In this document: piece after piece, positions 1 to 64,000 of the stretch | How the letters are laid out: each line of letters begins with the position of its first letter | Numbering within the stretch: position 1 is the stretch's first letter | Made by a program: the position numbers and the translations under genes | The notes under the pieces: model-generated | The model's database searches: none | What the model saw: only the letters and a program-made list of their open reading frames with translations | Told to the model about the DNA's origin: nothing | Origin: an uncultured Planctomycetia bacterium | GTDB lineage: Bacteria; Omnitrophota; Gorgyraeia; JABMRG01 | Length of the DNA stretch: 64,000 nt | NCBI GenBank assembly: GCA_964634945.1 | Contig: CAZWMG010000004.1 | Location: forward strand, 52,528-116,527 | Reading direction: 5' to 3'

Positions 1-1310
1 TAACGCGCACTCTGTTACGCTTTGCTTGATCCTGCAAGAACTCCATCCAGCTCGCTGTGTTAAAATCGTTGCGATGCTTCTTATAATACTTAAAGTCATT
101 TGGCACGAGTTTAAGATTTAGAAAATTATTCAGCACCTGTAAGCTTTTCGAAATTTCGTATAGCTTGCGCTGTTTGTCGTTTTTTATTAATACATTTTCT
201 ATCGCAGTTGACAGTCCGTCCGCTTCTTCGAACAATTTAACGGTATCTATGTCCTCATGCGCGCGCACATACGCCACGTATTTTTCTAGGTTCGGATAAT
301 CGCTAATCGGCTCTTGCGCGTTGTTTGCCTCGCTTACCAGGTATTCATGATACTCCGATGGAGTAAGCTTGTTAAGCCGAAATTCAAGCGACTTTGTGAC
401 CAAATTCGTCAGTTGTTGTTTTGTGAGTTTTTTAGACAGCTGCTCAATAAGCGCGCTTCTCTCTTTTTCCACAACAGGGAATTTAATATCCTTTTCCATG
501 CCCGTAACTTCAATAAAGCGTGTAAAATCAGGGTAAGTACTGAGGCCCTGCCTGGTCTTGCCTGCAAGCATGTTTATATATTTGTAATAATCCGCCAAAC
601 TTATCTGCTCGTCTTCATATTCTTGCCGCGCCTTGTCGAGCTCTAGTAACTGCGGGGAATAAATCTTCTTTTGCAACGCTCTCACGACCGTGCTTATACC
701 GCCAATCTCCTTGTTCGCTTTTTCGCGAAATTGCTCTATAGCAAAAAAGGTGTCGAGATTGGCCTTGTATAGCTCTTCCTCTTCAAGCCCTTCAAGCACT
801 AGGTCGTAATCGGAGATTATATCGAGATATTCCTCTCCTGATATCTTGCCGGATTTAAGGTATTCCTCCGCTACGTCAAGCCTGCGCTCCTTATCCGCGT
901 ATGAACGCAGATACGAAAGGCTAACATCGCCCCAGCCGCCCTCTACCATAACTAGTCGTAAGTCATTATTTTGAACAAGCGCGTCTATAATGCGGCTTGA
1001 GTTCTTCTGCGCCTCATAGTTAGTGTGAATATCCTGAATATGTATTACTATCTTCGCGTCATCAGATTGTGCCTTATAACCTTCTACTATATGACCGGCG
1101 CCTTCTGGGATATCGATAGATAAAGGCAGGCTATCCTTGGCACTGCCCACATCGGAATCCGCTGGTAGCGCGGCCGGCAATACGGGCTGAACCGCTAGTC
1201 GATGTTTCTGCTTTTCGTAAAACCTCGCTATTCTTGGTGCGACTATCACAAGTATCGCCAGCGCGCACAATATTGCTGATGATAATACCACTATTCGTTT
1301 TTTAAGCACA
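1..1310 (-). CDS. 5'-partial gene running off the window edge. It encodes a signal-anchored protein whose N-terminal domain (IHIQDxH...EG...) is a paralog of the N-terminal domain of the giant ORF at 32288..38890. Probable GTG start at 1308-1310.
   Basis: Hand translation of the minus strand is open from about 1310 to position 1, with no stop. The N-terminus MLKKRIVVLSSAILCALAILVIV is hydrophobic. The stretch KIVIHIQDIHTNYEAQKNSSRIIDAL..VEGGWG aligns with KLIIHIQDRHVDPVTQNNIASIIEAL..LEGAFN of the giant ORF, and further blocks are colinear. The ORF track omits it because it has no stop inside the window. Confidence 0.55.
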
Positions 1311-1492
1311 ATGTCTCCTTGTTTTAGTGTCGTTATATCACTTATAAAATACTTTTACCAACTTAATATGAAGTATAGCACACCATTTTCCGGATGTCAA
1401 GCCCTAGATGCGGACATTTGCAACTACACTTACTCTACAACGTCATGGTTAAGCGCCGGATCTGGCCTATCAAAAAAATGAGGCCGCGGTGC

Positions 1493-9194: not shown

Positions 9195-10286
9195 TTATAT
9201 TATTTGCATGGGCAGCACTATATATATGTATGTATCGTCTATACGTATAACGCCTGGTTTCTCCGGGCCTGTTAACTCTATCTCTACAATGTCTTGCTTT
9301 ATGCTTTTTAGCGCTTCTTGCAGGTATGTGGGATTAAACCCCACTAACAAGTCGTTGCCTGTATACTTAACCTCTATCTCTTCTTTTGTCTCTCCTATCT
9401 CTGGCGTTGCCTTCGAAACGACTAATTTGTTTTTTGTTAACTGTAGTTTTATCGCCTGTGATTCTGGTGTTGTAAGCAGGCTGGCCCTCTTTATAGCAGG
9501 TATAAGTTTATTGCGTTCTACTACAAGTTTTTTATCTGCCTCATTAGGTATCGCTTGCTTATAATCCGGGAATTCCCCCTCTACGAGCCTTGACACTATA
9601 TACAAGTTGTTTAAAGAAAATGTGACTTGGTTTTTTGAAAATTGTATTTTTATTTGTTCTGTATCATTTAAATTTTTTAAAAGTTCTTGTGTTGTTTTTG
9701 TGGGTATTATATATTTTTTTTCTTCTTGTGCGCTTGTCGCTTGTTTGTGTTTTACTATTGATAATCTTCTTCCGTCTGTTGCTATTAGTTTTATATTATT
9801 TTTTGATATAGCGCAGCAAATGCCGTTTAATACATATCTTGTTTCATCTCTGCTCATCGCGAACGTTGTTGCTAATAACATTTGTTTTAAGTCTGTTTGT
9901 TTTATTACAATTTCCTCTATTGTGGTTGGTGTTGGTAGTTGTGGGAATTCATCTTTTGGTGTAGTTAAGATTTTACATGTGGTTGTCTCTGTTTTTATAA
10001 TAATGGTGTTGTTTTTTTTAGCTGTTATCTCTATCTCTGTATTTGGTAGTTCTTTTATAATGTCTGCGAAGCGCTTTGCCGGTACGGTGACTGCTCCTTT
10101 TTCGTGAATCTTTGCCTCTGTTGTCGCTGTTATTCCTATATCTAGATCTGTTGCTGTGATTCTCACGTTGTTATTTACTTCTAGCAGTACGTTTAATAAT
10201 ATGGGTAATGTATTTTTTTGCGTTATCGCGCCAATAACAGCTTGTATTCCTAATAACAGATCATCTTTTTTTATACTTATCCTCAT
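9195..10286 (-). CDS. dnaN: DNA polymerase III beta sliding clamp
   Basis: 363 aa. Begins MRISIKKDDLL..; three-domain length; located next to dnaA. Confidence 0.9.
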   Translation of the reverse strand: MRISIKKDDLLLGIQAVIGAITQKNTLPILLNVLLEVNNNVRITATDLDIGITATTEAKIHEKGAVTVPAKRFADIIKELPNTEIEITAKKNNTIIIKTETTTCKILTTPKDEFPQLPTPTTIEEIVIKQTDLKQMLLATTFAMSRDETRYVLNGICCAISKNNIKLIATDGRRLSIVKHKQATSAQEEKKYIIPTKTTQELLKNLNDTEQIKIQFSKNQVTFSLNNLYIVSRLVEGEFPDYKQAIPNEADKKLVVERNKLIPAIKRASLLTTPESQAIKLQLTKNKLVVSKATPEIGETKEEIEVKYTGNDLLVGFNPTYLQEALKSIKQDIVEIELTGPEKPGVIRIDDTYIYIVLPMQII

Positions 10287-10367: not shown

Positions 10368-11741
10368 TTAACTAACGTCACGTATTTTAGTTACGATATT
10401 CTCTACCACACTCTTAATATGTGGATTCTTTTTAATATCTTCTTCTATCTTATCACACGCATGGATTATAGTGGAATGATCCCTGCCGCCAAATAATCCG
10501 CCAATCTCAACAAGAGGAAGTTTTGTCATTTCCCTAGATAAAAACATTGCGACTTGCCTGGGGTATGCCACTTTCTTGGTCCGCTTTTTAATCCGCATGT
10601 CATTACTGCCAATACCAAAATATTCCGCGACAACAAATTGTATCCTCTCAACATTTATATTAACCTTGTTTTCAACAACAATTTCCTTTAATACGTCGCG
10701 AGCAACAGCGATATCTATCTTATGGCTGACAAGGGACGAATACGCAATTACCCTAATTAACGCCCCCTCTAATTCACGAATGTTGGCGGTAACATTATCC
10801 GCTATATAAGTAATTACATCCATAGGGACAACAACAGTCTCTTTTTCAAGTTTTTTCTTTAATATGGCGATGCGCGTTTCCATGTCAGGTGGCTGCATAT
10901 CCGTAACAAGGCCCCACTCAAAACGAGATACAAGCCTCTTCTCCATCGCCGGCATCTCTTTTGGGGATCTGTCACTAGAAAAAACAATCTGCTTATGCGC
11001 GTCATAAAGCGTGTTAAAGGTGTGAAAAAACTCTTCCTGAGTAGCCTCTTTACCGGATATAAAATGTATATCATCTATTAAAAGAACATCCTGGTGCCGG
11101 TATTTATCTTTAAATTTTTGCGCAGTCCGGTTCTGAATAGAGTTAATAAGTTGATTAGTAAATTTTTCACTCGATATATAAGTTACTTTCAAGCGGGGTT
11201 GTTTTGCAAGGAGATGTAGGCCAATGGCCTGCATTAAATGGGTCTTACCAAGCCCTACGCCGCCATAAATAAACAGAGGGTTGTACGCCTTGGCAGGGCT
11301 ATCAGCGACGGCAAGGGCAGCGGCATGCGAGAAGCGGTTGCACCCGCCTATTACAAAATTATCAAACGTGTAGCGCTGGTTAAGAGTGGTGTCTTGCCCC
11401 CGGGCAAGTCTATCAAAAGAACGAGAAAATAGTTTAAAGCCCCCCTTCTTGTCGTTTATTTGCTCCGCGTCTTGGCCCTCCTGCGGAGCGTGCGCGCACA
11501 CAACAAAATTAATTTTTATTCCTTCGCTGCCAATCTCCCGGACTGCAGCATTAACCTGATCCATATAATGGTCAAGGAGCCACTCCTTAAAAAAATTATT
11601 CGGCACCTCAACAATAATTGTATCGCCTTCTACCTTAGTTTGCTTAGTAGGCACAAACCACGTCTCATAGCTTTGCGGGCTGATCTGTTTATGTAAACAA
11701 GCTAGAATCGACGTCCAGGTGTTATCTGTTGCGTGTACCAT
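10368..11741 (-). CDS. dnaA: Chromosomal replication initiator DnaA. Start probably at the internal Met (MVHATDNTW); the track's longest frame runs to 11804.
   Basis: AAA+ Walker A GGVGLGKTHLMQAIG. Box VII. C-terminal HTH KVAYPRQVAMFLSREMT. Confidence 0.9.
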   Translation of the reverse strand: MVHATDNTWTSILACLHKQISPQSYETWFVPTKQTKVEGDTIIVEVPNNFFKEWLLDHYMDQVNAAVREIGSEGIKINFVVCAHAPQEGQDAEQINDKKGGFKLFSRSFDRLARGQDTTLNQRYTFDNFVIGGCNRFSHAAALAVADSPAKAYNPLFIYGGVGLGKTHLMQAIGLHLLAKQPRLKVTYISSEKFTNQLINSIQNRTAQKFKDKYRHQDVLLIDDIHFISGKEATQEEFFHTFNTLYDAHKQIVFSSDRSPKEMPAMEKRLVSRFEWGLVTDMQPPDMETRIAILKKKLEKETVVVPMDVITYIADNVTANIRELEGALIRVIAYSSLVSHKIDIAVARDVLKEIVVENKVNINVERIQFVVAEYFGIGSNDMRIKKRTKKVAYPRQVAMFLSREMTKLPLVEIGGLFGGRDHSTIIHACDKIEEDIKKNPHIKSVVENIVTKIRDVS

Positions 11742-12007
11742 ATAGAAAGACCTTGAAGTTTGCGTAAATTGTGTACAACTTGATATCATAATCAAGCGGC
11801 ACAAAAACGCACATATAATAAACAGCTACAATAAACATGTTGCCGCAGCCTTGCCGACGACAAAATAGTGAAAACAACAACACGGCTATTACTTTTTGCG
11901 TACAACACAGACAAGGTAGAACATAGCGCGCAAGACAACAGAACGCTTGCGCTAAACGAAATGATTATAACAGAAACAAGGGCATTTGCAAGAAAAAAGT
12001 TTTTAAC

Positions 12008-12775: not shown

Positions 12776-12878
12776 CGCATACTACAAGGCCAAGTGCACA
12801 AGGTTACGGCAATAGCAGTATAACCGTATCATCTTGAACCGTATCATCGCACAACACACTGAAAACAAAGGATTTATA

Positions 12879-14492
12879 ATGAATAACGAGAAAAGATTAT
12901 TTTTAGCTATCGGCCTATCAGTGCTTATAATAGTAAGTTATCAAGCATATATGAGAAAGTATGCTAAACCGTATCATCCGCAAAGCATGAGTGATACGGT
13001 TGTAGAAACCGAAAAAGCGGCGCCGGTAATTCGCAAAACAACAAAAGTGCAAGAGGATTCTGTTAGCGTGCGCGCTGTTCCGGATATTACAACAACCGTA
13101 AGCAACGATGTTTTTACAGCAATTTTTACAGATAATGGGGCAGCGATAAAAGAGCTATATCTAATGCAATATTTAAATAGCGCAGGCGAGCCCACATTAC
13201 TATGCAGGCCAATAGAGCAGACACCGTACTTATTAGCAACAACAGAGAAGGCAGAGGCTATGCGCAAATGGCGCGTGGTTAGCAATAATAGCAATCATAT
13301 TGTGTATAAAAGCACACTAGATGGAATAGAAATAATTAAAACATTTAATTTCTATAACACTAAGCATATTATAGGGTTAGAAGTCGCAATACGCAACACA
13401 ACGCAGACACATAAACAGGTAAATTACGCACTTGGTAGTGGAGCGGTTGAGGCAAGTAGTGGCTACCTAGACAGTAGGTATATTGGGGCTGATGTGGATA
13501 TAGCGGGTAAGGTTCTGAGAAAGCGGCCATCAGGAAAAACCATAACAGACGGCATTTACGTAACCGGTTCCCCCGCATGGGTTTCAGTGCACGATAGGTA
13601 TTTTTCATTAGTCTTAAAGCCAGAGCAGCAAGAAGAAGGGGCGATCATAAAAAGCAGTACAAAGAAGAATATATGGTCAAGCATAATATCAGGGCCAGTG
13701 GCTTTAGGCCCAAGCCAAGTTGTTACGAGAAGCTACGTTCAGTATGCAGGCCCAAGTGATATTGCATCGATCTCAGAGTTAGGCGCATCAGCAGGCAATG
13801 TAATAAGTTACGGGTTTTTCCATCCCGTAGCAAAGGTGCTTTTCAGGGCCCTGCGCATGTTTTATCGAATAACAGGTAATTACGGTTTATCCATTATTCT
13901 TTTATCGCTTACTATCAGCTTAATAATGATGCCGCTTACGAGAAAGAGCCTGCATTCCATGAAGGCTATGCAGGCGATTCAGCCGGAAACAGAACAAATA
14001 CGCAAGGCCTATAGCGACAATCCGCAAAAAATGAACAAAGAGATCATGGATCTCTATAAAAAGCATAAGATAAATCCTGTAGGAGGCTGTTTGCCAATGT
14101 TGTTGCAACTGCCGATTTTTATGTCTCTATATCAGGTCTTGTTGCGTAGCGTGGCATTGCGTGGGGCACATTTTTTATGGATTAAAGATCTCGCAGGGCC
14201 GGATGCGGCATTTACATTGCCGCAAAAATTCCCAATAATTGGCAACCATATTAATATATTACCAATTTTAATGGCTATTGCTATGTGGGGACAGCAAAAG
14301 ATGTCACAGGGTGGAGGTAAGGAGGTATCAGACCAGCAAAAGATGATGGCAACAATCATGCCTATAATGTTTGGCTTTATCTTTTATAACATGCCTTCCG
14401 GTCTTGTATTATATTGGTTCACAAACACACTGTTTATGCTGCTCATACAGGAAGTCGTCTTAAAGGTGCGCAAACCGGCGATCAGCCAGTAG
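12879..14492 (+). CDS. yidC: Membrane protein insertase YidC (start at MNNEKRLFLAIGL; the track ORF begins at 12834)
   Basis: Large periplasmic domain, then the conserved C-terminal 5-TM core (PMLLQLPIF..LYQ). Confidence 0.9.
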   Translation: MNNEKRLFLAIGLSVLIIVSYQAYMRKYAKPYHPQSMSDTVVETEKAAPVIRKTTKVQEDSVSVRAVPDITTTVSNDVFTAIFTDNGAAIKELYLMQYLNSAGEPTLLCRPIEQTPYLLATTEKAEAMRKWRVVSNNSNHIVYKSTLDGIEIIKTFNFYNTKHIIGLEVAIRNTTQTHKQVNYALGSGAVEASSGYLDSRYIGADVDIAGKVLRKRPSGKTITDGIYVTGSPAWVSVHDRYFSLVLKPEQQEEGAIIKSSTKKNIWSSIISGPVALGPSQVVTRSYVQYAGPSDIASISELGASAGNVISYGFFHPVAKVLFRALRMFYRITGNYGLSIILLSLTISLIMMPLTRKSLHSMKAMQAIQPETEQIRKAYSDNPQKMNKEIMDLYKKHKINPVGGCLPMLLQLPIFMSLYQVLLRSVALRGAHFLWIKDLAGPDAAFTLPQKFPIIGNHINILPILMAIAMWGQQKMSQGGGKEVSDQQKMMATIMPIMFGFIFYNMPSGLVLYWFTNTLFMLLIQEVVLKVRKPAISQ

Positions 14493-32287: not shown

Positions 32288-35200
32288 ATGACAAAAAAAA
32301 CTATAACACTTATACTTATAATAAGTTATATCATAACATCTAGCGGTCCTTGCTACGGTTTCGGCGCTAAGACGCTATTCACGCGCAAATCTCATGCACA
32401 AAGGCATGTAAATGCTTCTGCCAAGGCTGCGGAGAAGGATATTCTGGAGGCTTCTTCATCTCTTAGTATACCAAAAAGCCTCGGCCGCGTAGTTGAATCC
32501 TATAAAGGCAAAAATAAGAAGTTAATAATCCATATTCAGGACCGCCACGTAGACCCGGTTACGCAGAACAATATCGCGTCAATAATAGAGGCCTTGAATC
32601 TGCAGCACAATATTTATCTTATGTGCCTTGAAGGCGCTTTTAATGAACTTGATACATCGTTTTACAATAGTTTTGAGGATGCAGTGCTAAAAAAGAAGGT
32701 TGCGGAGGTTTTTGTGCAACAAGGCCTTTTTACAGGCCCGGAATTCTACAAGATAACCAATGCGGAAAATTACATAAGGGCCGTTGGCGCGGAGGATCGT
32801 GCGTTATATTTAAAACATCTTGCCAATTATAAGGAGAACCAGATCAATAAAGATGAAATTACAAGGCTCCTCAGGCATATGGGCAAAGCTACAGACGCGC
32901 TTAAGAAGCATGTTTTCTCTAAGGAGTTGATAGCATTAGACAAGGTTTCTCGCGATTACGTTAACAAGCAGATCGACCTGCCTGAATATCTTCTCCAGCT
33001 GAACGCGTATGCAGCCAAGTCCGACATATTGCCAGAGGAGTATTCTAATCTAAACAAATTTATCCATCTTACGGAAAGAGAACGCAGCATAGATTTTAAA
33101 GCAGCGGAGCAAGAGAGAGAATCGCTGATAAGATATTTTTCAGAGCGCCTGCCAAAAGAAGGCGTCCAGGCGCTCGTCCAATTAAGCCTTGATTTCCGTT
33201 CAAACAAGGTCTCAGATATTGTTTTTCACGACTACCTTGAGAGCTTAGCAGTTGAGCATGGGTTAAATAGCGCTATTTATAAAAACCTTGTTGCGTATAC
33301 AGAATATTTGAGGCTTTCTAGGGAGATAAACCATCTAAAGGTCTTTGATGAAGCACAAGATCTAGAGGAAAGAACGCAGATAGCGCTTTGCAATAACCAA
33401 GACCAGCAGAGCCTTGTTCAATATTCAAAATCAGTGAGCATGTTAAAAGATCTATATGCACTCAAGCTTACGCATCGTCATCTAGATTATATGGACGAGC
33501 ACCCGGGCTCGTTTGATATAGCAAACATACAAAAGTTTTTAAACAAAACATCTGCCAAATACGGCTTAGATACATTGTTAACCGATAGCTTAATAAGCCC
33601 GGATAGGCAGGCGCTTAATAATTCAAAAGAATTTTACCGCCTCGCGCTAATGCGTGACATTGCCCTTACAGACAACACATTAAAGCGCATGAAGCAGTAT
33701 CGTAAGGACAAGGCGATTCTTGTTACAGGAGGCTTTCATACTCAGGGCATAACAAATATTTTAAGGAAAAAAGACATATCATATGTTGTCATATGTCCTA
33801 CCATAGGCCTTAATGATTGCGATAAGATCTACGAAAAGCGGATAAATGGCACTCTTCCTAGTATGTATGCGTTGCAAACAGCATTGGCTAATATGTTATC
33901 TGTGCAGCTTAAGTCTGGCGAGGCTGATGTGCAGGAGCTCTTTTCTAAGGCCTACCAGAGCGTTTCTCAGCCTGCTGTAGAAGCCCAGGATATATTGATA
34001 GCCAAAGCCTCGTCATCAGGATTAGGTGGTTATGTAGTCAAAAACTTAATAGTTGCTGCAACAGTAGCGCTATTGGGAACAGGGATTTATATCCAGCAGT
34101 CTTCAGTAAGTTCTCAGAAAGACGCAATGGATACATTTGTGATAGCAAAGGCATTGCCATCGGATCAGTGGCAGATTATTTTAGATACATTAAGAGAGAT
34201 TTACGCCCTTATAAAAGACATAGAAGCGCCGAAGCCGCGCCAGATGGAGATGAAATTCAAGGTTGGCAAGGCGGCACGCATTTTACGTGATTACATAACG
34301 AATAATTTAGATAGTATACATAAGTATGCTAAGGAGGAGGGGATAGAACCGAATTATCTTGCGGCAATAATCATAGCAGAGCAGATGGATATAGACGAAT
34401 TTAGTTTAAAAGGTGAGGGCACAGATAAGATTCTGCCGCGTCTTCATATACGTGATACATCGCGGGGCCCGGGGCAGATAACAGAGCGGGCGCTTAAAAA
34501 GCATTGTAAAGAGACGCGGTGGCCCGCGTATGATAATCGATCTACGGAAGAGCTCTCCGATTCCGAGATAAATGCTATCCTAATGGGTGAAGGGGGCAAC
34601 CTGACAGACCACATAAGGGCGATAGCGATAATCTTAAGGGGAAAACGTGATTCTATTAAAGATTCTGCCGCGCTCTCTCTTGTTCAAGGCAAGCTGCAGT
34701 TAGGCGCGCTTTATACATCAACATACAGGGGCCTCGTAAAGGAGGATAAGGAGGATTTCTGTACATTCAGACAACTAAGAGAGAGCGAAAAAATACGGAC
34801 ACAGGTTTATGCGCATGCTGTAATTATCTATGAAGACTTTGTAAGCAAATGGCTGCGCTACCATAAATATGCATATGTGCCAGATGACATGTTATCTATG
34901 ACACTGCCTACCGATAACGCGGTTGATAGCGGCGCTGACGGCATTCAAGATATACAGGCAAAGGCCTCATCATCAGGCAGGAAGATAATGCATGTATGGG
35001 AGAATGGACACCCTGTCCTACCAGGGGGTTCACAAGCTACGCTTATGGCAGGATTAGGCGTATGTTTTGCAGTAGCTGCTAAACATACAAAAACAGAAGA
35101 AAGGTATATGGCGCACCTGTATCCGCTTCGACAAACAGGGGGCGCAGCAGGGAACTGGAAAGACGCGTATATCAATACGATGCTTAGCCGGCTCGATAGT

Positions 35201-38200
35201 TTCAATGTTCAACCACCAGGCCACAGGATAGATAAAGCCCGTAAGGGGAATGGATGGAATGCCGTTGTTATCCCGTCAGGTAAAGAGCTTGACGGTTATC
35301 CAAAAGAGGATAGAATCACGTTAGAGGACATAACAGAGAGGCTGGAGGCGGCTGGTGTAGATTTTATCGCAGACATTAACAGGGCCCACAAGTTAGTTAG
35401 ATTCCAAAAAGACGGCTCCATAAATATTATTCTGCCGGAAACGCCGGAAGCCTCTTATGACATTACTGCGCTGACGAAGGCTTCATCATCAGGCCGCGAT
35501 ATAGACAGAGGCTCTTTTTATAATCTTATACCTTCTGAAACCAGGCCAAGCGCAAAGATATATGATTACACCGATACAGAGGACAGGTATGAGATAATAG
35601 AATCGCTTAAGAGCAGTAATTGGTATTACCAGGCAGACGGTGATGGCCAGAAAGCCGCGATAATCAACAGGGCCTTTAACACGCTATCCGACTCTGCTAT
35701 TAACCAGCTAAAGAGTATTATAACAGAGCGCATGCAGGAAAACGGCAATGCTATAACAGAAGACACTATAGAGAGTATTATGGTATATGGAAGTTGGATA
35801 TATAATTTCGATGACAAGAAGATTTCTAATGATATCGATTTCGCGGTTATAGCAAAAGGAGATATACCCGTTCAGTCTATAAGAGGCGTAAGGATTCCGA
35901 AAACACTTTTTAAGGACACAGCCGATATAATACCGGTAGAACAAGCCGACATAAGGATTATAGGCACAGAACAACTCTTGTTAGCACCCGATGAAAAGGA
36001 GTACGAGACTACCCACTTTGAGGTATCTATGCAGGGCCACGGCATATTGCTCTGGGGCAGGAACTTCTTTCAGAGGCAGCCTATGGCGCACAATCTTATG
36101 GTGATGGCCAGAACGTTTTTATCTATTATGGAATTTTATCTGGATGTAAAATTACACAGCACGCATTATCCAGAAGAGTATTTAGATACTCTGAATAAAA
36201 GGCTGGATGAGGTGTATAATATTTTTAAGGTGCTGTTTAAAAATCTTGACCAGCCGGAACAGCCTTTAGCTGTAGGTATTATTCCCGTAGATAAGGCAGT
36301 AAAAGATATGAAGGCAGTAATGCGTAATGTAAGAAAATACTTAGACGGCTATTCTTATGAAGCGTTCCAGGATATCCTTAATACCGGTGTAGCGTCTGGA
36401 TTGAATGCACTTTATGTCCAGACCGAGACCAAGTTCATGAAAGAGTCGTTAGAAGCTCTTGGAAAAAAGACACAGGCCAGGACTTCATCATCAGGGGCAA
36501 TAATTACGCGCCCATTAGATAAGATACCGCCGGAAGAGATAAAGAATATTCTTGTTGTAGGTGATTACAAAAAGATAATACCAATGCCTAAATTAGGCGA
36601 GACAATAATAGATTTATGGCCGCTTGTTACTTCTCTTTGTAAGAAATACCCGGAATCAAAGATATTCGTATCAGCCCCTTATACGGAATTTTATTTAGCA
36701 GGCGACTTTAAGGGGCAGGTGGTCCCCATACCAAGCACAATAAAAGATATCCGTGACTGGGGCTACGCTAAATCAACATGGATTACAGATGATATTAACG
36801 GAGAGAAGGTATTGCGGTATAATGCGAAAGATATGTGCGCGTTAACACAGGCCGGCTATAAGGCGCGAAAGGAATTTATTCAGGACGAGATAATATTTGA
36901 GAGAAAACAGGAAGACCGGACAGGCGGTGAGGCGGGAACGGGAATCGATATGGTTTTTGATGTATCTGTGGCGCAGGGCCTGCGCAATGAGTTTTTAGGT
37001 AAGCAGCGCGGCAGACAGCCGTATTATTTTTCCATAGCCTCTTTTCTTAAGTATGCAAGCGCAACGAACGTATCCGTCGGACGCTATGATCAGGAATGTC
37101 CTGCGCAATACCGTGACAAGAAGGGTGATATTCACGACGTAAATTATGGTAATACGCTGGATGGCTTTCTTAACGTTCCTATGCTTAAACAGGCAGATAT
37201 ATGGAAGGCATCAATCGCTATTACCGCCGGCCTGGGCCTTGATGTAACGCAAGATAGTCTCAGATATATAACTTTAACCGAAAGTGAACGCCAAAACGCG
37301 ATAAGTTTTTTATCAGAAGTAAGCGGTATTTTTGATGGAAAGAACGAGACTGCTATTTTTGATACGACGAAGAAGATTATTCTTGTTAATGTATACGCAC
37401 AGACACAAAGTGTTTTAATGGGTTATACAATCGACCAGCAGATAGACACTTGGGTAGATTGCATAAGCACAACTCTCAAATCAATGAGAAACACCTATAT
37501 TGTTTTTACGAGAGGCGGGGAGATGGATGATAACTATACGTTTGTTGACCAGGTTGCAAGGGAGCTGATAAAAAGAAGCAAGGGCTCTGTCGCTCCACAT
37601 CAGAACGCTGTAATCCTGCCAAAAGAATCATTATATTCAAGGATTAACGAGGTTGTTGGCTTATCAGATGCGGTAATAACCCTGGATACGGGTATGAGCC
37701 ATTATGCTAACGGGGTATTTAATAAGCCTACACTCCTTATTACATCATCCAATATTCTGCACTGGGCTGCACCAAGAGAGAATGTATACCCGATAATACG
37801 CACCACGATACCGCAAAAAAATACTCACTATACAGAATTAGACAGTATTAAGCACGCAACCATGCTTTTGAACGCATTGTTAGGTGTAAAATCAGTCCGT
37901 GAAATACTTAAAAGCAGAAAACAGGCCAAGGCATTATCGTGGCTCGATTCCAATGATAGAATGCAGCAGCTCAGGACGCTTATGCAGCGCAAGTACGACC
38001 CTGCCGCAGAGATAGTTATGGATGATGTTGTGGATCAAATATTTCCAAAAGTTGTAGCGGATTTTATCGAGAAGAAAGCCGGGCGAAACGCAGAATATCT
38101 TTGGCCGCTTAGTGTTTCACCTAAAGCCTCTTCCGCTGGTACGAAGATATTGGATGAGGAATTATATTATGACGTAAGCGAGGCTATAGAGAAGAGCATA

Positions 38201-38890
38201 GAGCCTCTTTATGAGAAGGCCAGCAGTCTTGGGCTTGGGCGGCTGACATTTATTACAACGGTGCGCGAACTTACAGAGATAGATAAGAAACATTTAAGAA
38301 ACCTCGCCAGGCAAAATTCAGGGCTGCCGGATGATGCCCCGAAAAAGATAACCATAATAGCCTTGCACGATCAGCTGATAGGCGCGCTGAAAGGGTGCGG
38401 TTTTACTGATACAGGCGCCAGGCCTTCTGTGTTAGGTGTTAATTCCTTCAGTTTCTTGCCGGACTTTTTGGGCAGGGGCTGGGATAACATAGATGACGAT
38501 GAAAAGATGGCTATGGTAGCTGCGCATGCACGCACTCAGAATAAGGCCGTCATAACGATAACGGATGATATAGCTGCACAGGGTATCGCCTCTGTGATAC
38601 CCGCATACCTAAACGACAGGATGAAAGGAAGAGTCGTTATAGCGTCTATGAAAGGGGCAGAGCAAAAGACGCGGATCGGATACGATACAATAGAAGAAAA
38701 CGGCATACTCTTTAGTGCGATACTCGCCAATGCCGTTAAGGAGATAGGCACACAACTTATAGGGAGCAAGGATCAGGAATTATTTATACTGAATATATTG
38801 CCGCCTATTAATAGCAAGGCATTCGAAGAATTTATTCATAGCCTCATGGATATCAAAACCGCGGTTGAAGCAACTGCTTCAGCAGCCTAA
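32288..38890 (+). CDS. Giant 2200-aa mosaic protein. Signal peptide, then an N-terminal IHIQDRH/GGFHTQG domain (TraB/TIKI-like?), then a TM helix near residue 585. A minimal nucleotidyltransferase domain (GSx12DIDF) follows, then a GT9 heptosyltransferase-like domain. Six K/T-A-S-S-S/A/L-G linker motifs separate the domains.
   Basis: Single uninterrupted frame. Motifs read from the translation: VYGSWIYNFDDKKISNDIDFAVI; ILVVGDYKKIIP..LITLDTGMSHYANGV; KASSSG at about residues 570, 890, 1060, 1400 (TSSSG), 1960 (KASSAG) and 1990 (KASSLG). Confidence 0.85.
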   Translation: MTKKTITLILIISYIITSSGPCYGFGAKTLFTRKSHAQRHVNASAKAAEKDILEASSSLSIPKSLGRVVESYKGKNKKLIIHIQDRHVDPVTQNNIASIIEALNLQHNIYLMCLEGAFNELDTSFYNSFEDAVLKKKVAEVFVQQGLFTGPEFYKITNAENYIRAVGAEDRALYLKHLANYKENQINKDEITRLLRHMGKATDALKKHVFSKELIALDKVSRDYVNKQIDLPEYLLQLNAYAAKSDILPEEYSNLNKFIHLTERERSIDFKAAEQERESLIRYFSERLPKEGVQALVQLSLDFRSNKVSDIVFHDYLESLAVEHGLNSAIYKNLVAYTEYLRLSREINHLKVFDEAQDLEERTQIALCNNQDQQSLVQYSKSVSMLKDLYALKLTHRHLDYMDEHPGSFDIANIQKFLNKTSAKYGLDTLLTDSLISPDRQALNNSKEFYRLALMRDIALTDNTLKRMKQYRKDKAILVTGGFHTQGITNILRKKDISYVVICPTIGLNDCDKIYEKRINGTLPSMYALQTALANMLSVQLKSGEADVQELFSKAYQSVSQPAVEAQDILIAKASSSGLGGYVVKNLIVAATVALLGTGIYIQQSSVSSQKDAMDTFVIAKALPSDQWQIILDTLREIYALIKDIEAPKPRQMEMKFKVGKAARILRDYITNNLDSIHKYAKEEGIEPNYLAAIIIAEQMDIDEFSLKGEGTDKILPRLHIRDTSRGPGQITERALKKHCKETRWPAYDNRSTEELSDSEINAILMGEGGNLTDHIRAIAIILRGKRDSIKDSAALSLVQGKLQLGALYTSTYRGLVKEDKEDFCTFRQLRESEKIRTQVYAHAVIIYEDFVSKWLRYHKYAYVPDDMLSMTLPTDNAVDSGADGIQDIQAKASSSGRKIMHVWENGHPVLPGGSQATLMAGLGVCFAVAAKHTKTEERYMAHLYPLRQTGGAAGNWKDAYINTMLSRLDSFNVQPPGHRIDKARKGNGWNAVVIPSGKELDGYPKEDRITLEDITERLEAAGVDFIADINRAHKLVRFQKDGSINIILPETPEASYDITALTKASSSGRDIDRGSFYNLIPSETRPSAKIYDYTDTEDRYEIIESLKSSNWYYQADGDGQKAAIINRAFNTLSDSAINQLKSIITERMQENGNAITEDTIESIMVYGSWIYNFDDKKISNDIDFAVIAKGDIPVQSIRGVRIPKTLFKDTADIIPVEQADIRIIGTEQLLLAPDEKEYETTHFEVSMQGHGILLWGRNFFQRQPMAHNLMVMARTFLSIMEFYLDVKLHSTHYPEEYLDTLNKRLDEVYNIFKVLFKNLDQPEQPLAVGIIPVDKAVKDMKAVMRNVRKYLDGYSYEAFQDILNTGVASGLNALYVQTETKFMKESLEALGKKTQARTSSSGAIITRPLDKIPPEEIKNILVVGDYKKIIPMPKLGETIIDLWPLVTSLCKKYPESKIFVSAPYTEFYLAGDFKGQVVPIPSTIKDIRDWGYAKSTWITDDINGEKVLRYNAKDMCALTQAGYKARKEFIQDEIIFERKQEDRTGGEAGTGIDMVFDVSVAQGLRNEFLGKQRGRQPYYFSIASFLKYASATNVSVGRYDQECPAQYRDKKGDIHDVNYGNTLDGFLNVPMLKQADIWKASIAITAGLGLDVTQDSLRYITLTESERQNAISFLSEVSGIFDGKNETAIFDTTKKIILVNVYAQTQSVLMGYTIDQQIDTWVDCISTTLKSMRNTYIVFTRGGEMDDNYTFVDQVARELIKRSKGSVAPHQNAVILPKESLYSRINEVVGLSDAVITLDTGMSHYANGVFNKPTLLITSSNILHWAAPRENVYPIIRTTIPQKNTHYTELDSIKHATMLLNALLGVKSVREILKSRKQAKALSWLDSNDRMQQLRTLMQRKYDPAAEIVMDDVVDQIFPKVVADFIEKKAGRNAEYLWPLSVSPKASSAGTKILDEELYYDVSEAIEKSIEPLYEKASSLGLGRLTFITTVRELTEIDKKHLRNLARQNSGLPDDAPKKITIIALHDQLIGALKGCGFTDTGARPSVLGVNSFSFLPDFLGRGWDNIDDDEKMAMVAAHARTQNKAVITITDDIAAQGIASVIPAYLNDRMKGRVVIASMKGAEQKTRIGYDTIEENGILFSAILANAVKEIGTQLIGSKDQELFILNILPPINSKAFEEFIHSLMDIKTAVEATASAA

Positions 38891-61896: not shown

Positions 61897-64000
61897 GGGG
61901 CAGATCATGGGAATACGGGTCAATAAACTTATATCAATCTTAATTGTACTGGCTTTTATATCTACCAGTACCAACCTAAACTATATATCTTCTTATATAA
62001 GCAACGATAAAGACGCTCTTAGGAGCATGTCCGCAAATAAGGCCGTGGCAGGCGATTTAAAGCAGGCGCTTATAGCGGCACCTGCATTGCAAGCGCTTTT
62101 AGGCGTACCTTCTACTAAAACATCCTCTGCAGGAGATCTGACAGATGTAACAGCCAAGCTAAAGCAGATACTCAAAAATCCTGATTTAAAACCGCCTGTT
62201 AGGATGCTTATAGATTCTTTAAGCGTATGGATTCAAGAGAATTCCGGACAGAAAAACAAAAACCATATATTGCAAAGGGCCGAACTTGACAAAAGGATAG
62301 ATGAGATAGAGGGCTTACTTGAGGAGATCGAGCTGGATATTCAGACTCCGGGAACAGGACATCTTCCTGAACTGGCAATTATATCTGATTATCATGGTGA
62401 GATTAACCTATTTCTTAAGTATGTTGCTGATATAATATCCCAAAAAATAGGCAAAAAGATAGAGCTAGACCATAAGATATTTCCACAGCAGTCGCTTAAA
62501 GAGCAGCTTGCTGCTCAAGGCGTTGATATCGCGCAGATAGATATAACCTTTTTTCTGTTGGGAGATTTTTTAGACAGGGGCGCTTATGGCGTCAAATGTT
62601 TCAGGCTTGCGGAAGAGATGATTAACCTTGGAATAGCAAAATATGTTACCGGTAATCATGATTTATGGGCATTCTTAAATGTTATGGGGTTTCATCTACC
62701 CGCTTATAAGGGGTATAATTTTTATGGGCAGGCAAAATCTGAGCAACTGGTTACTGACCATTGGAGCGATTCAGAGATAGCAGATAACAGGATTGCCTGG
62801 TGGACAGATAATCTTGCCGAGTATAATGCCTCGCAGCAGGAGCTCCAGAAAGACCTATTGCTTACTTATCGCGGCAAAAAGAAAACAGCTAATGTTATAA
62901 GAGAAGACCTTAAGGCAGTGTATTTGACAATTGAGCACATGCTTACAGAGCAGGAAAAGAAATTATGGCAGGATCTTGTAGGCTATTATTTCGGAACCAC
63001 AGATGTGTATACGGGTTTTCGCGCGGTAGGCATGATGTCAGCGCAGTGGTGGAAAAACAAGGTACAGGCCCTAGATAGAATCATTGAGACAAGCTTGGAG
63101 TATCAATCTCCGGAATCAGTTGCAACAGAGATATGGTATCAGGTAAAGGAATATACGGATCAGGCTGCTCTTGTTGTACAGACACGGTTGGACGACGCTA
63201 TTGCGCAAGGAGAGTGGTGGTATCAGGTATTTAATGATATCAATCATCAGAATTATGTATCTGTTGAATGGTGGGGCAAGGATTGGTCATCACATAAAGG
63301 ATGGGGTACAAGTGTTATAGATGAGTTAAACCTTTTAGAAAATAACGGAGTTTGGAACCAGGCAAACTACGTTGAGAATCAGCACCTTAAAGACCTGGCA
63401 ATGTTTTACAGAAAGAATTTTACGCTATATCAGAAAGACTCTTACGGTAACGTATACACACATGGCTGGCTGCCTATTAATATGGAGACAGGACGCATAT
63501 CTTTTCAATACAAAGGTGTTACATATGAAGATAGAGATGTATGGAACGGCCTGGAAGCCATACAGAACGATGTACGGGATTTGAGCAAGCCTCTTTCAGA
63601 GCTCCACGAAGCGCTTAGCCTGGTCAACTCCTGGTATGCGGATAAGACTACAAAGATAAAACCGGATCATATTAAGGCTTATCTCCAAGAGGTAGGACTA
63701 GAAAAAATATATAGTAAGCTTGGCATCAGATGTTGGTTTACGTGCCATAATCCGCTTAATAAGCTAGCTTCTAAAGGCATAAGTTTTAAGACCCAACAGG
63801 ATTTGTTGCTGCATTTTTCAGTTGATAAAGGTATGAGCTATAAAAAATTCAAAGACTTAGGAGCATATACAAGAGTAAGCTCAGAAGGCATTTTCCTAAG
63901 AGGATTTGCAAGTTCGAGTTTTCAGAGGATAATCGATAGCCCGCCTACTGTGACATTGCAGAAGGATGAAGAGTTTGGTTATGTTGCAAGAAAGAGATTT
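61897..64000 (+). CDS. 3'-partial calcineurin-like metallophosphoesterase with an N-terminal signal/TM. Possibly class III fructose-1,6-bisphosphatase-like. It runs off the window end.
   Basis: Open frame to position 64000. Motifs IISDYHGE, LLGDFLDRG, VTGNHDLW. Confidence 0.55.

Follow-up and report, generated by a model that had tools for sequence, protein, structure and literature searches.

A recurrent linker hexapeptide at the cassette junctions of a modular Omnitrophota protein, a candidate processing site

A single long reading frame

The window analysed here, a stretch of 64,000 nucleotides, contains a complete open reading frame on the forward strand (32288..38890) that runs uninterrupted from ATG to stop and encodes 2200 residues plus the stop codon; all features of this gene given below lie on the same strand. 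The gene is cellular and chromosomal, adjoining pheST and rarA with oriC about 20 kb away. A preliminary description of this DNA had reported one uninterrupted 6.6-kb frame and had raised assembly fusion as a point to check. The frame is real, and a fusion is ruled out because the identical 2200-aa product is recorded on four public contigs (NCBI and Logan assemblies, the longest contig 125 kb) and a 2008-aa fragment of it is present in another assembly. Composition is even along the frame, and genes of other species in the same syntenic slot hold the head and C-terminal modules described below in one frame. Against these observations, the reading of the frame as an assembly or frameshift artefact joining separate genes, for which we found no supporting point, is refuted for practical purposes. 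The motifs quoted in the preliminary description (IHIQDRH, LEG, GGFHTQG, GSW...DID and LDTGMSHYANGV) are all found in the protein.

A second gene of the same family lies on the reverse strand (2..1354), where hmmsearch with the head profile detected it with an E-value of 2.5e-110; only its head module is seen, and the gene continues beyond the left edge of the window.

Conserved terminal modules

The protein begins with a signal-peptide-like segment (aa 1-27, 32288..32368) made of a K-K n-region, a hydrophobic core (ITLILIISYIIT) and a c-region of small residues. Judged by pattern, 199 of 211 family members start in this way, in agreement with the earlier assignment, and the family proteins are probably exported. 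An A-x-A site is present in 95 of the family N-termini, as AWA in 44 of them.

The head module follows (aa ~29-565, 32372..33982) and measures about 520 aa across the family. Searched against Pfam and PDB sequence profiles it gave no match. Its core, of the Tiki/TraB/EreA/ChaN hydrolase fold, is formed by aa ~60-170 and ~470-535 and is interrupted by a helical insertion of ~300 aa. Q84, D85, H87, E115, G116, R456, D457, N463 and G481-G482-F483-H484 are invariant, and over 219 heads the conservation of D85-x-H87, E115, R456 and H484 reaches 95% or more, so that, judged from the sequence, the catalytic constellation appears intact. In the same 219 heads, column 89 beside the catalytic His is Asp in the proteins bearing the linker motif described below and Asn in the others. 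The spacing of 28 between His and Glu is the same as in RRSP (H3902/E3930) and Bcr135 (H85/E113) (PMC6254334). The region had been read as a TraB/GumN/TIKI-like metalloprotease; the fold is upheld, whereas the metalloprotease label is unsupported, the related RRSP being metal-independent (PMC6254334).

At the opposite end, a conserved C-terminal module (aa 1952-2200, 38141..38887) consists of a helix packed on a compact alpha/beta domain and ends in ...E-A-T-A-S-A-A-COOH. Its helix is what had previously been taken for a short peptide between motifs.

Four cargo cassettes

Between these modules lie four cassettes, S2 to S5. Cassette S2 (aa 579-891, 34022..34960) combines a hydrophobic helix (aa 582-602, 34031-34093) with a lysozyme/SLT-like domain in which E-Q, G-x-G-Q and Y-T-S are invariant; one copy matches the Tse3 muramidase and SLT with an E-value of 1e-4. 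Homologous copies occur in the relatives P0002-P0006 and P0010, and the helix moves together with the cassette. The single TM helix is hence not the fixed part of the architecture that it was thought to be: it is the first element of S2 and is missing where the head is followed by a different cassette. Should the N-terminus be a signal peptide that is cleaved off and aa 582-602 act as a stop-transfer segment, the head of this particular protein would lie opposite S3-S5 across the membrane, a point that counts against the processing reading favoured below.

Cassette S3 (aa 898-1063, 34979..35476) is a small domain in which a Cys (LG-x-C-FAVA) and a His (S/A-H-L-x-P) are conserved together; of the seven aligned copies, one has lost both. 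A Pfam search gave no match. It occupies a different position in P0004 and directly follows the head in P0007-P0009. Cassette S4 (aa 1070-1397, 35495..36478) holds a Pol-beta-type nucleotidyltransferase-like domain, with G99, S100, D113 and D115 (cassette numbering) invariant as the G-S...D-x-D signature; five of six copies match PF18765 (best E 1e-4, below the gathering score). The nucleotidyltransferase signature noticed earlier is thereby upheld, and nothing points to the CD-NTase-like option offered with it. Cassette S5 (aa 1404-1945, 36497..38122) is a GT9-like glycosyltransferase domain that continues into a helical extension at its C-terminus. All three copies match PF01075 below threshold (best E 2e-4), the match to TIGR02193 has an E-value of 0.005, and hhalign against E. 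coli WaaC gives a probability of 68% (E 5e-5) over the LPKxSL...DTGxSH signature, consistent with the GT9 hallmarks recognised at first. The five-part layout originally proposed thus survives for the signal peptide, nucleotidyltransferase and GT9 parts, while S2, S3 and the conserved C-terminal module had been overlooked.

A hexapeptide at the junctions

The segments are separated by a recurring hexapeptide, with five copies of K-A-S-S-[SAL]-G and one of R-T-S-S-S-G in the query, where composition would predict ~0.004 occurrences. Motif 1 (K-A-S-S-S-G, aa 573-578, 34004..34021) stands immediately after the head, a junction where 25 of 40 motif-bearing relatives also carry it. Motif 2 (K-A-S-S-S-G, aa 892-897, 34961..34978) is followed by motif 3 (K-A-S-S-S-G, aa 1064-1069, 35477..35494), the left boundary of S4, and by motif 4 (R-T-S-S-S-G, aa 1398-1403, 36479..36496), where the S4 insertion ends on the right in the comparison with P0002 and P0003. 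Motif 5 (K-A-S-S-A-G, aa 1946-1951, 38123..38140) is the canonical site before the C-terminal module, and in 19 of 27 relatives a motif lies 39-57 aa ahead of the core of that module. Motif 6 (K-A-S-S-L-G, aa 1977-1982, 38216-38233) may not be equivalent to the other five, because it sits in the predicted helix of the C-terminal module and carries an atypical Leu. In the structure model, residues 558-572 before motif 1 and motif 5 itself have pLDDT values below 50, so the linkers at these two sites are predicted with low confidence.

As first noticed, the motif falls at domain boundaries, and this recurs in homologs: all six query sites lie at or near boundaries set independently by homology break-points. 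A logo built from 95 instances in relatives reads K/R-[AST]-S-S-[AS]-G, with flanks that are neither conserved nor rich in Ser and Gly. None of 129 instances falls inside the head or C-terminal module, which together make up ~30% of residues. The median spacing is 321 aa, Pfam domains in relatives are confined to single inter-motif segments, and a shuffle control places the motif far above the null in relatives, where it reaches up to 10 copies. Over 78 loci, head-family reading frames (159 k aa) contain 24 motifs and other frames (277 k aa) only one. The Ser, Lys and Gly codons of the motif vary within and between genomes, so selection acts on it as a peptide. At four of the query sites the same 11-nt string, TCATCATCAGG, recurs, and TCA accounts for 11 of the 12 Ser codons there, compared with a background of 25%.

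Cassette turnover and lineage distribution

The query belongs to an undescribed family of ~10,000 sequence clusters, apparently all from Omnitrophota, whose proteins of 0.5-7.7 kaa share one layout: signal peptide, Tiki-like head, variable cargo cassettes and conserved C-terminal module. The domain combination that had seemed unique is incidental in so large a family, since cassette content varies even within one syntenic slot. In the slot between pheST-rarA and cysK we find genes with one, two or four cassettes, reading head-S2-C, head-S3-X-C and head-S2-S3-S4-S5-C. Cassettes are gained, lost and reordered precisely at the hexapeptide, with which the homology break-points coincide. P0002 and P0003 lack S4, and compared with them the query has it inserted precisely between motifs 3 and 4; in P0004 the order is changed, with query residues 889-1069 at 1427-1594 and 1064-1431 at 872-1245.

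The motif is confined to the sub-lineage of the query (Ca. Orphnella and relatives), where it occupies head, cassette and tail junctions. It is present in 10 of 10 proteins with at least 50% head identity to the query, in 20 of 25 at 44-50% and in none of 83 at 30-35%. Only a few other members have an alternative island motif above the shuffle null (R-x-S-A-S-G in P0060, R-T-S-P in P0103 and T-D-A-S-G-A-A-P in P0091).

The same mark is found in a headless family (P0220, P0244-P0246), after a common leader and also between FBPase, aldolase, TIM-containing and tail cassettes, which are likewise shuffled at the motif. The window holds the start of P0220 (61907..64000, forward strand; full length 1049 aa), where K-T-S-S-A-G (62117-62134, forward strand) stands between the leader and a metallophosphoesterase-like enzyme; its second motif and C-terminal module lie past the window end.

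Possible functions of the hexapeptide

We tentatively favour the view that the protein is a polyprotein cut by proteolysis at specific sites, the head being the prime candidate for the protease, an account that is quite possible but short of probable. The query gene would encode a Sec-signal-bearing modular precursor of a very large, apparently Omnitrophota-specific family, its cargo being the four cassettes S2 (lysozyme/SLT-like, anchored by its helix), S3 (small, with Cys and His), S4 (Pol-beta-type nucleotidyltransferase) and S5 (GT9-like glycosyltransferase). The hexapeptide K-[AST]-S-S-[AS]-G, set in an otherwise unconserved linker, would be the recognition site of a site-specific endopeptidase that releases the head, the separate enzymes and the tail from the chain. 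For this protease the head comes first to mind because it is the sole universally conserved catalytic domain and shares its fold with TIKI and RRSP, both endopeptidases with defined sites; it would have to act both in cis and in trans, as headless proteins of the same lineage carry the same mark. For the same reason, a separate enzyme could recognise the motif. Moreover, linker cutting may not be the general job of the head, since the head occurs in ~10,000 clusters and the hexapeptide in one sub-lineage, and the Tiki fold does not by itself imply a peptidase, as the superfamily includes esterases (Ere) and non-enzymes (ChaN, PMT C1).

A somewhat unlikely alternative is that the hexapeptide serves the linkers as a site for modification or docking and not for cleavage. 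The invariant serines could belong to a sequon for O-glycosylation or phosphorylation, or a partner could bind the hexapeptide as a short linear motif; the protein would then work uncut, as a set of tethered enzymes on the cell envelope. The Ser-rich motif, the low-confidence linkers at the two modelled sites and the pattern-based export signal fit this idea, as does lineage specificity, expected of a sequon co-evolving with its enzyme. General bacterial O-glycosylation systems, too, target Ser in flexible regions rich in Ala, Ser and Pro; however, the strict invariance of K, S-S and G and the single copy per junction are tighter than is typical of such regions. In the headless family, moreover, the motif parts an N-terminal leader from an enzyme, a position typical for pro-peptide removal, and no kinase or oligosaccharyltransferase is consistently linked. 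Intact function would agree with a 2026 preprint (10.64898/2026.06.07.730766), which sees giant Omnitrophota proteins as membrane-anchored multi-enzyme assemblies.

It is improbable that the motif is mainly an evolutionary junction mark, one that permits or results from the exchange of cassettes by recombination and does little biochemically once the protein is mature. Cassettes do turn over exactly at the motif, and the shared 11-nt string with its TCA bias could favour intragenic recombination. But a degenerate 18-nt site is a poor recombination substrate, the motif is kept at junctions that are stable between species, and synonymous positions vary freely across genomes whereas the peptide does not, which argues for purifying selection on its amino acids. 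Convergence of ordinary flexible Ser/Gly linkers by composition, in a plain multidomain envelope enzyme as in the original mosaic reading, is disfavoured and very improbable. Such linkers are common and the lysozyme-like and GT9-like domains are plausibly envelope-related, but the excess over composition and over the shuffle null, the near-absence from unrelated proteins and the flanks without Ser/Gly enrichment all speak against it, and an invariant Lys and a fixed length are foreign to generic linkers.

Comparison with known systems

The head matches the Tiki/TraB/EreA/ChaN superfamily (TIKI1/2, RRSP, TraB/PrgY, GumN, erythromycin esterases), of which TIKI and RRSP are site-specific endopeptidases, in the D/E-x-H, E, R, H constellation and its spacing. 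It differs in having Asp in place of the first Glu, in the ~300-aa helical insertion that splits its core and in standing always at the N-terminus of a multi-kiloresidue modular protein. Viral polyproteins also join several enzymes in one chain, parted at short conserved sites by a chain-encoded protease, and there the site changes together with the protease from lineage to lineage; the surroundings of the query gene (pheST, rarA, ~20 kb from oriC) showed no viral context.

MARTX toxins resemble the query family in their conserved N- and C-terminal regions around variable, strain-specific shuffled effector cassettes; an internal protease cuts the inter-cassette linkers, and one of their effectors, RRSP, shares the Tiki fold of the query head. 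Processing in MARTX falls to a cysteine protease that InsP6 activates and that cuts after Leu; in Pfam scans of the query protein, neither a cysteine-protease nor an RTX-repeat family was reported. MARTX toxins have glycine-rich repeats at their ends, use type I secretion and carry toxin cargo, whereas the query has a Sec-type export signal and a cargo of metabolic and envelope enzymes. The gingipain polyproteins RgpA/Kgp and LapA, which is cut by LapG at a T-A-A-G site, are processed bacterial surface polyproteins and adhesins. As in the query family, the chain opens with a signal peptide and, still N-terminal, a protease or retention module; several domains follow, and a conserved C-terminal domain, here for sorting, closes it. 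Their modules are cut apart at short motifs built of small or basic residues, as is proposed for the query. Unlike the query, they use other folds and secretion systems (T9SS CTD beta-sandwich; T1SS), carry adhesin domains instead of enzymes and lack a repeated fixed hexapeptide.

From the same phylum come the giant multi-enzyme proteins of Omnitrophota (West-Roberts et al. 2023, bioRxiv 10.1101/2023.11.21.568195; 2026 preprint 10.64898/2026.06.07.730766). The giants, like the query family, string many unrelated enzyme domains (PGM, glycolytic enzymes, kinases, methyltransferases, glycosyltransferases) along one polypeptide with a signal peptide and/or TM helices, and post-translational cleavage has been hypothesised. 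They are longer, at least 10,000 aa (at least 30,000 in 10.1101/2023.11.21.568195) against 0.5-7.7 kaa, and C39 or S8 peptidase domains, unlike the Tiki-like head here, are proposed as their processing enzymes. Within the passages and terms covered, the two sources make no mention of a Tiki-like head, a conserved C-terminal module or a linker motif, and in one of them the cleavage points are explicitly called unknown. For giant bacterial proteins of this kind, the hexapeptide offers the first concrete candidate for a cutting site.

A head-defined protein family in Omnitrophota

The query protein of 2200 residues is encoded by a single ATG-to-stop ORF at positions 32288..38890 (+) of the window. 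The long ORF and the recurrent motif of the preliminary description hold as described, both the frame and all six motif copies having been recovered. Since the identical 2200-aa protein occurs on four public contigs, the longest of 125 kb, the ORF is not a fusion artefact; a 2008-aa fragment is present in a further assembly.

The homolog search returned 219 proteins of 1,200-3,800 aa, each covering just 20-26% of the query, and those with a named source all belong to Omnitrophota or a related candidate phylum. Their precomputed Pfam annotations reveal a diverse cargo that includes phosphoglucomutase, PEP-utilising enzymes, enolase, PFK, PGI and UbiB kinases, as well as M48/M50 peptidases, metallophosphoesterases, TPR, radical SAM and CsrA. 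Mapping of the alignments shows that aa ~1-550 is the sole region of the query common to all 120 homologs listed. With the cargo alone (aa 579-2200), the search, limited by its word index, returned 4 proteins. Using a profile of 24 diverse heads (the module at aa ~29-565, behind the signal peptide), an exhaustive search retrieved the representatives of 10,080 clusters built at 50% identity, with 6,985 reaching E ≤1e-30. In every match listed, the head lies at the extreme N-terminus of a protein whose length ranges from 537 to 7,683 aa. Heads are encoded at no fewer than 577 loci of species-representative genomes, often several per genome. No Pfam or NCBIfam model matches it, aa 1-572 being without a hit in either, and whole-protein searches of Pfam, NCBIfam and PDB sequences gave faint matches only.

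A second head-family gene is found at 2-1354 (-) of the window, starting at ~1354 and exiting at the left edge (head profile E 2.5e-110), so that at least two paralogs are encoded within 64 kb. Head-family genes also occur on many MAG contigs whose titles read 'uncultured Planctomycetia' (TPA binchicken; loci L001, L002, L004 and others). Some of these contigs share the pheS-pheT-rarA-head gene order of the window, with proteins 70-93% identical, and the titles of head-bearing contigs are therefore probably taxonomic mislabels of Omnitrophota.

A pattern-based analysis identified a charged n-region and a hydrophobic core at the N-terminus of 199 of 211 family members, with an A-x-A site just past the core in 95 of these N-termini (AWA in 44). 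This pattern is typical of a Sec signal peptide, as which the N-terminus of the head family is predicted to act. The single TM helix proposed earlier does correspond to a hydrophobic helix at aa 582-602, but it is not a family-wide part of the protein. Most relatives have no second strongly hydrophobic segment after the head; the helix is kept in the related proteins P0002-P0005, which share the next cassette, and is missing in P0008 and P0009, where a different cassette follows the head. It thus belongs to cassette S2, with which it travels, rather than to the family architecture.

The head adopts a Tiki/TraB/EreA/ChaN-type fold

The AF2 model of the head, computed from a 24-sequence alignment, has a mean pLDDT of 82.5. 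It displays a central parallel beta-sheet core with flanking helices, interrupted by a helical insertion of ~300 aa (aa ~170-470), and superimposes on solved members of the Tiki/TraB/EreA/ChaN superfamily. The scores are 10.4 for HopBA1, 10.2 and 10.1 for the EreA-like structures 2qgm and 2rad, 10.0 for ChaN, 9.5 for a TraB-family protein, 9.4 for EreC and 7.8 for RRSP. The earlier TraB/GumN/TIKI-like reading was thus right at the level of the fold only: the head has no curated-family profile match to TraB, GumN, Erythro_esteras or Cofac_haem_bdg in Pfam and NCBIfam, and a profile of 24 heads found no match among PDB sequences.

The invariant columns of the head comprise Q84, D85, H87, E115, G116, D122, R456, D457, N463 and G481-G482-F483-H484. 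Conservation of these columns, among them D85-x-H87, E115, R456 and H484, reaches 95% or more across 219 heads. The 2His/2Glu catalytic set of the superfamily, with its conserved Arg, consists in RRSP of E3900-x-H3902, E3930 and H4030 together with R4001, and Bcr135 has the pair H85/E113 (PMC6254334). The His-to-Glu spacing of 28 in the head is that of both RRSP and Bcr135, whereas the first acidic residue is Asp in the head and Glu in RRSP, the equivalence being one of order and spacing alone. Judging from these residues, the head domain looks catalytically competent, while the metalloprotease label of the preliminary description stays a putative one.

Two residues after the putative catalytic His, column 89 (window 32552-32554) is occupied by Asp in 88% of the proteins with the motif and by Asn in 89% of those lacking it. 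The column may determine specificity by pairing with the motif Lys, or may reflect mere phylogeny, which confounds the Asp/Asn split and makes it a hint only.

Cargo cassettes of the query

Four cargo cassettes, S2 to S5, lie between the hexapeptide motifs. S2 (aa 579-891) consists of the helix and a domain in which E-Q, G-x-G-Q and Y-T-S are invariant. A homologous copy matches the Tse3 muramidase and SLT families (E 1e-4), which makes S2 lysozyme-like. S3 (aa 898-1063) is a small domain in which a Cys and a His are conserved together. Both are lost jointly in one copy (P0003 aa ~893-1045, where LGxC becomes AGET and S/A-H-L becomes A-N-L), so the pair behaves like a functional dyad, with the P0003 copy predicted to be inactive. 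No family match was obtained for S3 in Pfam with 7 copies. A CheD-like deamidase was considered and dropped because 0/7 copies gave any Pfam match, leaving S3 unassigned.

S4 (aa 1070-1397) resembles Pol-beta-type nucleotidyltransferases. All 6 copies have G99, S100, D113 and D115 (cassette numbering) unchanged, giving the signature G-[SG], 9-13 residues, D-x-D, and a third carboxylate, the Asp of A-D-I-R-I-I, can be read from the sequences of 5/6. S4 scores 17.6 bits against PF18765, below the cut-off of 26.9, and 5/6 copies match sub-threshold with a best E of 1e-4. The S4 profile found nothing significant in the PDB (best E ~1, a uridylyltransferase), and, as to the CD-NTase suggested in the preliminary description, no cGAS/DncV-like family is listed for the query in the Pfam and NCBIfam scans, nor do the neighbouring genes, which are housekeeping ones, give a defence-system context.

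S5 (aa 1404-1945) is a GT9-like glycosyltransferase cassette carrying the C-terminal nucleotide-sugar-binding signature LPKxSL...D-[ST]-G-x-x-H...P. Its hhalign comparison with E. coli WaaC gives a 68% probability (E 4.9e-5) over 60 columns spanning LPKxSL...DTGxSH, as opposed to 4% only for WaaF, and TIGR02193 matches the same stretch (E 0.005). Against PF01075 it scores 11.4 bits, below the cut-off of 22; 3/3 copies match sub-threshold, with a best E of 2e-4. The N-terminal half of S5 is covered by no GT9 match, and its profile-to-PDB search had no significant match. Both the nucleotidyltransferase and the GT9 domain of the preliminary description can hence be kept at the superfamily level, the former through its invariant G-S...D-x-D and PF18765, the latter through its C-terminal signature and WaaC, but they fall below the curated thresholds, and the GT9 assignment leaves the N-terminal half unmatched.

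A conserved C-terminal module

In 11 close relatives, the final ~215 aa are homologous to the final 218 aa of the query. An iterated search with this C-module (aa 1952-2200) converges on 32 proteins, with all matches ending exactly at the C-terminus. Other seeds yield more subfamilies, so that the module is recognisable in 125 of 218 proteins in sum, many of the others being truncated. The AF2 model of aa 1940-2200 (pLDDT 87.6) shows a compact alpha/beta domain onto which the short inter-motif peptide packs as a helix; K-A-S-S of motif 5 is the sole stretch with pLDDT below 50. No close structural relative was found, and the profile-to-PDB search had no significant match. With almost no invariant polar residue, the modeled domain looks like a structural or recognition module and not an enzyme. 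Complete family members nearly all end in ...A-S-A-A, ...K-A-A, ...S-L, ...A-L or ...S-V behind a conserved terminal helix. In the query clade, the tail A-[ST]-A-S-A-A (window 38867-38887 in the query) is loosely similar to the internal motif.

A hexapeptide marks the module boundaries

The query contains K-A-S-S-[SAL]-G at aa 573, 892, 1064, 1946 and 1977 and R-T-S-S-S-G at aa 1398, where ~0.004 occurrences are expected from composition. In its closer relatives, K/R-[AST]-S-S-[AS]-G is present one to ten times. The logo of 95 instances shows six nearly fixed positions between unconserved flanks. None of 129 instances falls inside a head or C-module; the motif directly follows the head in 25/40 proteins and stands 39-57 aa before the C-module core in 19/27, with a median spacing of 321 aa between motifs. 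Pfam domains of the relatives fall within single inter-motif segments.

Homology break-points coincide with the motif, and it is there that cassette order and number change. S3 and S4 are swapped in P0004 relative to the query, which in turn, compared with P0002 and P0003, has S4 inserted between motifs 3 and 4. At the conserved locus pheS-pheT-rarA-[gene]-cysK-HcyBio, whose neighbours are 70-93% identical, the gene in the slot encodes head-S2-C, head-S3-X-C or head-S2-S3-S4-S5-C. The head family combines fast cassette turnover with a stable chromosomal locus. A conserved neighbouring protease gene was not found, the neighbours at the syntenic loci being housekeeping genes only.

The motif codons vary within and between genomes, which indicates that selection acts on the peptide; their TCN-codon bias is what an ancestral serine under strong constraint would be expected to show. 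In the query, TCA accounts for 11/12 Ser codons at the four sites with S-S-S (34004-34021, 34961-34978, 35477-35494 and 36479-36496), compared to ~25% gene-wide. TCATCATCAGG is common to three of these sites. This TCA run, not seen in other genomes, may reflect a recent intragenic duplication or gene conversion.

Over 1.1 Mb of related loci, 24 motifs lie in head-family ORFs and 1 elsewhere. Motif presence tracks the similarity of the head to that of the query: it occurs in 10/10 proteins at head identities of at least 50%, in 20/25 at 44-50%, in 8/15 at 35-40%, in 0/83 at 30-35% and in 1/80 below 30%. De novo searches of distant members for lineage-specific punctuation gave only a few candidates that, besides the hexapeptide, exceed the shuffle null and look like islands, namely R-x-S-A-S-G (P0060), R-T-S-P (P0103) and T-D-A-S-G-A-A-P (P0091), with P0047 as a possible further case, most other recurrences being domain repeats or helical-composition noise within that null. 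As true islands are few in distant members, we do not claim punctuation family-wide.

Headless proteins and genomic context

The same motif is found in a family without a head. One member, P0220, starts within the window (61907-64000, +; 1049 aa full length) and comprises a ~70-aa leader, K-T-S-S-A-G at aa 71 (nt 62117-62134), a metallophosphoesterase-like enzyme, R-S-S-S-A-G at aa 779 and a C-terminal module. Three proteins of Ca. Orphnella occulta have no more than the ~70-aa leader in common with P0220; there, the leader is followed by the motif, then by cargo containing a class II FBPase, a class II aldolase or TIM, and by a second motif. P0245 637-832 and P0246 74-269, segments of two headless proteins, are 88% identical and both begin exactly at a motif. 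Because headless proteins carry the motif, its recognition cannot need the head in cis. The central-metabolism enzymes of this family combine signal-like leaders with punctuation.

Most Omnitrophota homologs of the 61907+ ORF (P0221-P0242) likewise have signal-peptide-like N-termini but are devoid of the hexapeptide, on which basis export or anchoring of this metallophosphoesterase-like enzyme type seems widespread in the phylum. Elsewhere in the window, dnaN (9195-10286, -), dnaA (10368-11804, -) and yidC (12834-14492, +) surround an intergenic gap of ~1 kb at which gene orientation and GC skew flip sign. Lying ~20 kb upstream of the query gene, the dnaA-yidC gap probably represents the chromosomal origin of replication.

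Possible roles of the hexapeptide

On the most economical interpretation, a site-specific enzyme reads the hexapeptide, given its strict, short island form, its occurrence once per junction, its co-variation with lineage and the low-confidence linkers where modeled. Of such activities we favor site-specific proteolysis, to which we give somewhat less than an even chance. In its favor, the motif parts a leader from an enzyme and independently folding enzymes from each other, the only universal catalytic domain of the family sits in a superfamily with site-specific endopeptidases, and cleavage of the Omnitrophota giant proteins has been proposed before, with no sites known. Against it count the far wider distribution of the head than of the motif, and the presence of the Tiki superfamily fold in esterases and non-enzymes as well. 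A modification or docking site is a serious if distinctly less probable candidate; were the sites uncut, the hexapeptide would still be a new lineage-specific short linear motif needing a reader.

That the hexapeptide marks a recombination junction, as its coincidence with homology break-points could be read, we consider improbable: synonymous positions vary within and between genomes, and the TCA run is local to the query. On this variation, a DNA-level repeat or recombination site was rejected as the main explanation. A generic linker, to be set against six nearly fixed positions, is very improbable, and an artefactual long ORF has a negligible chance, assembly fusion being ruled out by the four-contig identity and by the syntenic-slot genes of other loci.

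Proteolysis at the hexapeptide is also the core of a broader scenario, speculative and rather unlikely as a whole, in which many enzymes of the Orphnella lineage would be made as Sec-targeted polyproteins, including central gluconeogenic/glycolytic ones (class II FBPase, class II aldolase and TIM). The Tiki-fold head would act as a dedicated endopeptidase cutting at the fixed hexapeptide K-x-S-S-x-G, and the C-module would serve as a sorting or delivery signal. The released cargo would be active beyond the cytoplasm of the producer, whether in an expanded periplasm, at the cell surface or within a host or prey cell, and this would agree with the host dependence that has been proposed for these nanobacteria.

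Whatever the reader, the hexapeptide provides a sequence-defined candidate cleavage site with positions predicted in dozens of proteins, and the head a candidate protease with named putative catalytic residues. Cleavage at these sites would make the proteins an unusual bacterial example of a polyprotein strategy that is cellular and does not serve a toxin, and the signal-bearing FBPase, aldolase and TIM precursors would then prompt one to ask where central carbon metabolism occurs. Independently, a large unannotated family of ~10,000 clusters at 50% identity, with no Pfam model and a head-cargo-tail grammar, is now defined. The definition of this family, the Tiki fold of its head and the turnover of cassettes at a punctuating hexapeptide appear to be new, as does the extension of this punctuation to leader-bearing gluconeogenic enzymes: in the literature searched, we found no description of the family, and no paper linking it, the Tiki-fold head and the punctuation.

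Comparison with known systems

The head-cargo-tail architecture follows the same logic as MARTX toxins, processed surface polyproteins and viral polyproteins, and, should the broader scenario be true, it would be a bacterial chromosomal counterpart to MARTX toxins or viral polyproteins. MARTX proteins are defined by type I secretion, by an internal cysteine protease domain and by glycine-rich repeats of RTX type at either terminus. None of these was recognised in the query: Pfam searches of the whole protein and its segments gave no RTX-repeat or cysteine-protease family, and its N-terminus is of Sec type, so that the likeness is in logic only.

A characteristic peculiarity of Omnitrophota is their giant multi-enzyme proteins. 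Two preprints (10.1101/2023.11.21.568195; 10.64898/2026.06.07.730766) deal with such proteins from a length of 10,000 aa, or of 30,000 aa in West-Roberts et al., the former of the two. According to this literature, no cleavage points are known in them. At 2200 aa, in a family of 537-7683 aa, the query is below this size, but it shares with the giants its origin in Omnitrophota, the many unrelated enzyme domains per chain and the signal/TM-type targeting.
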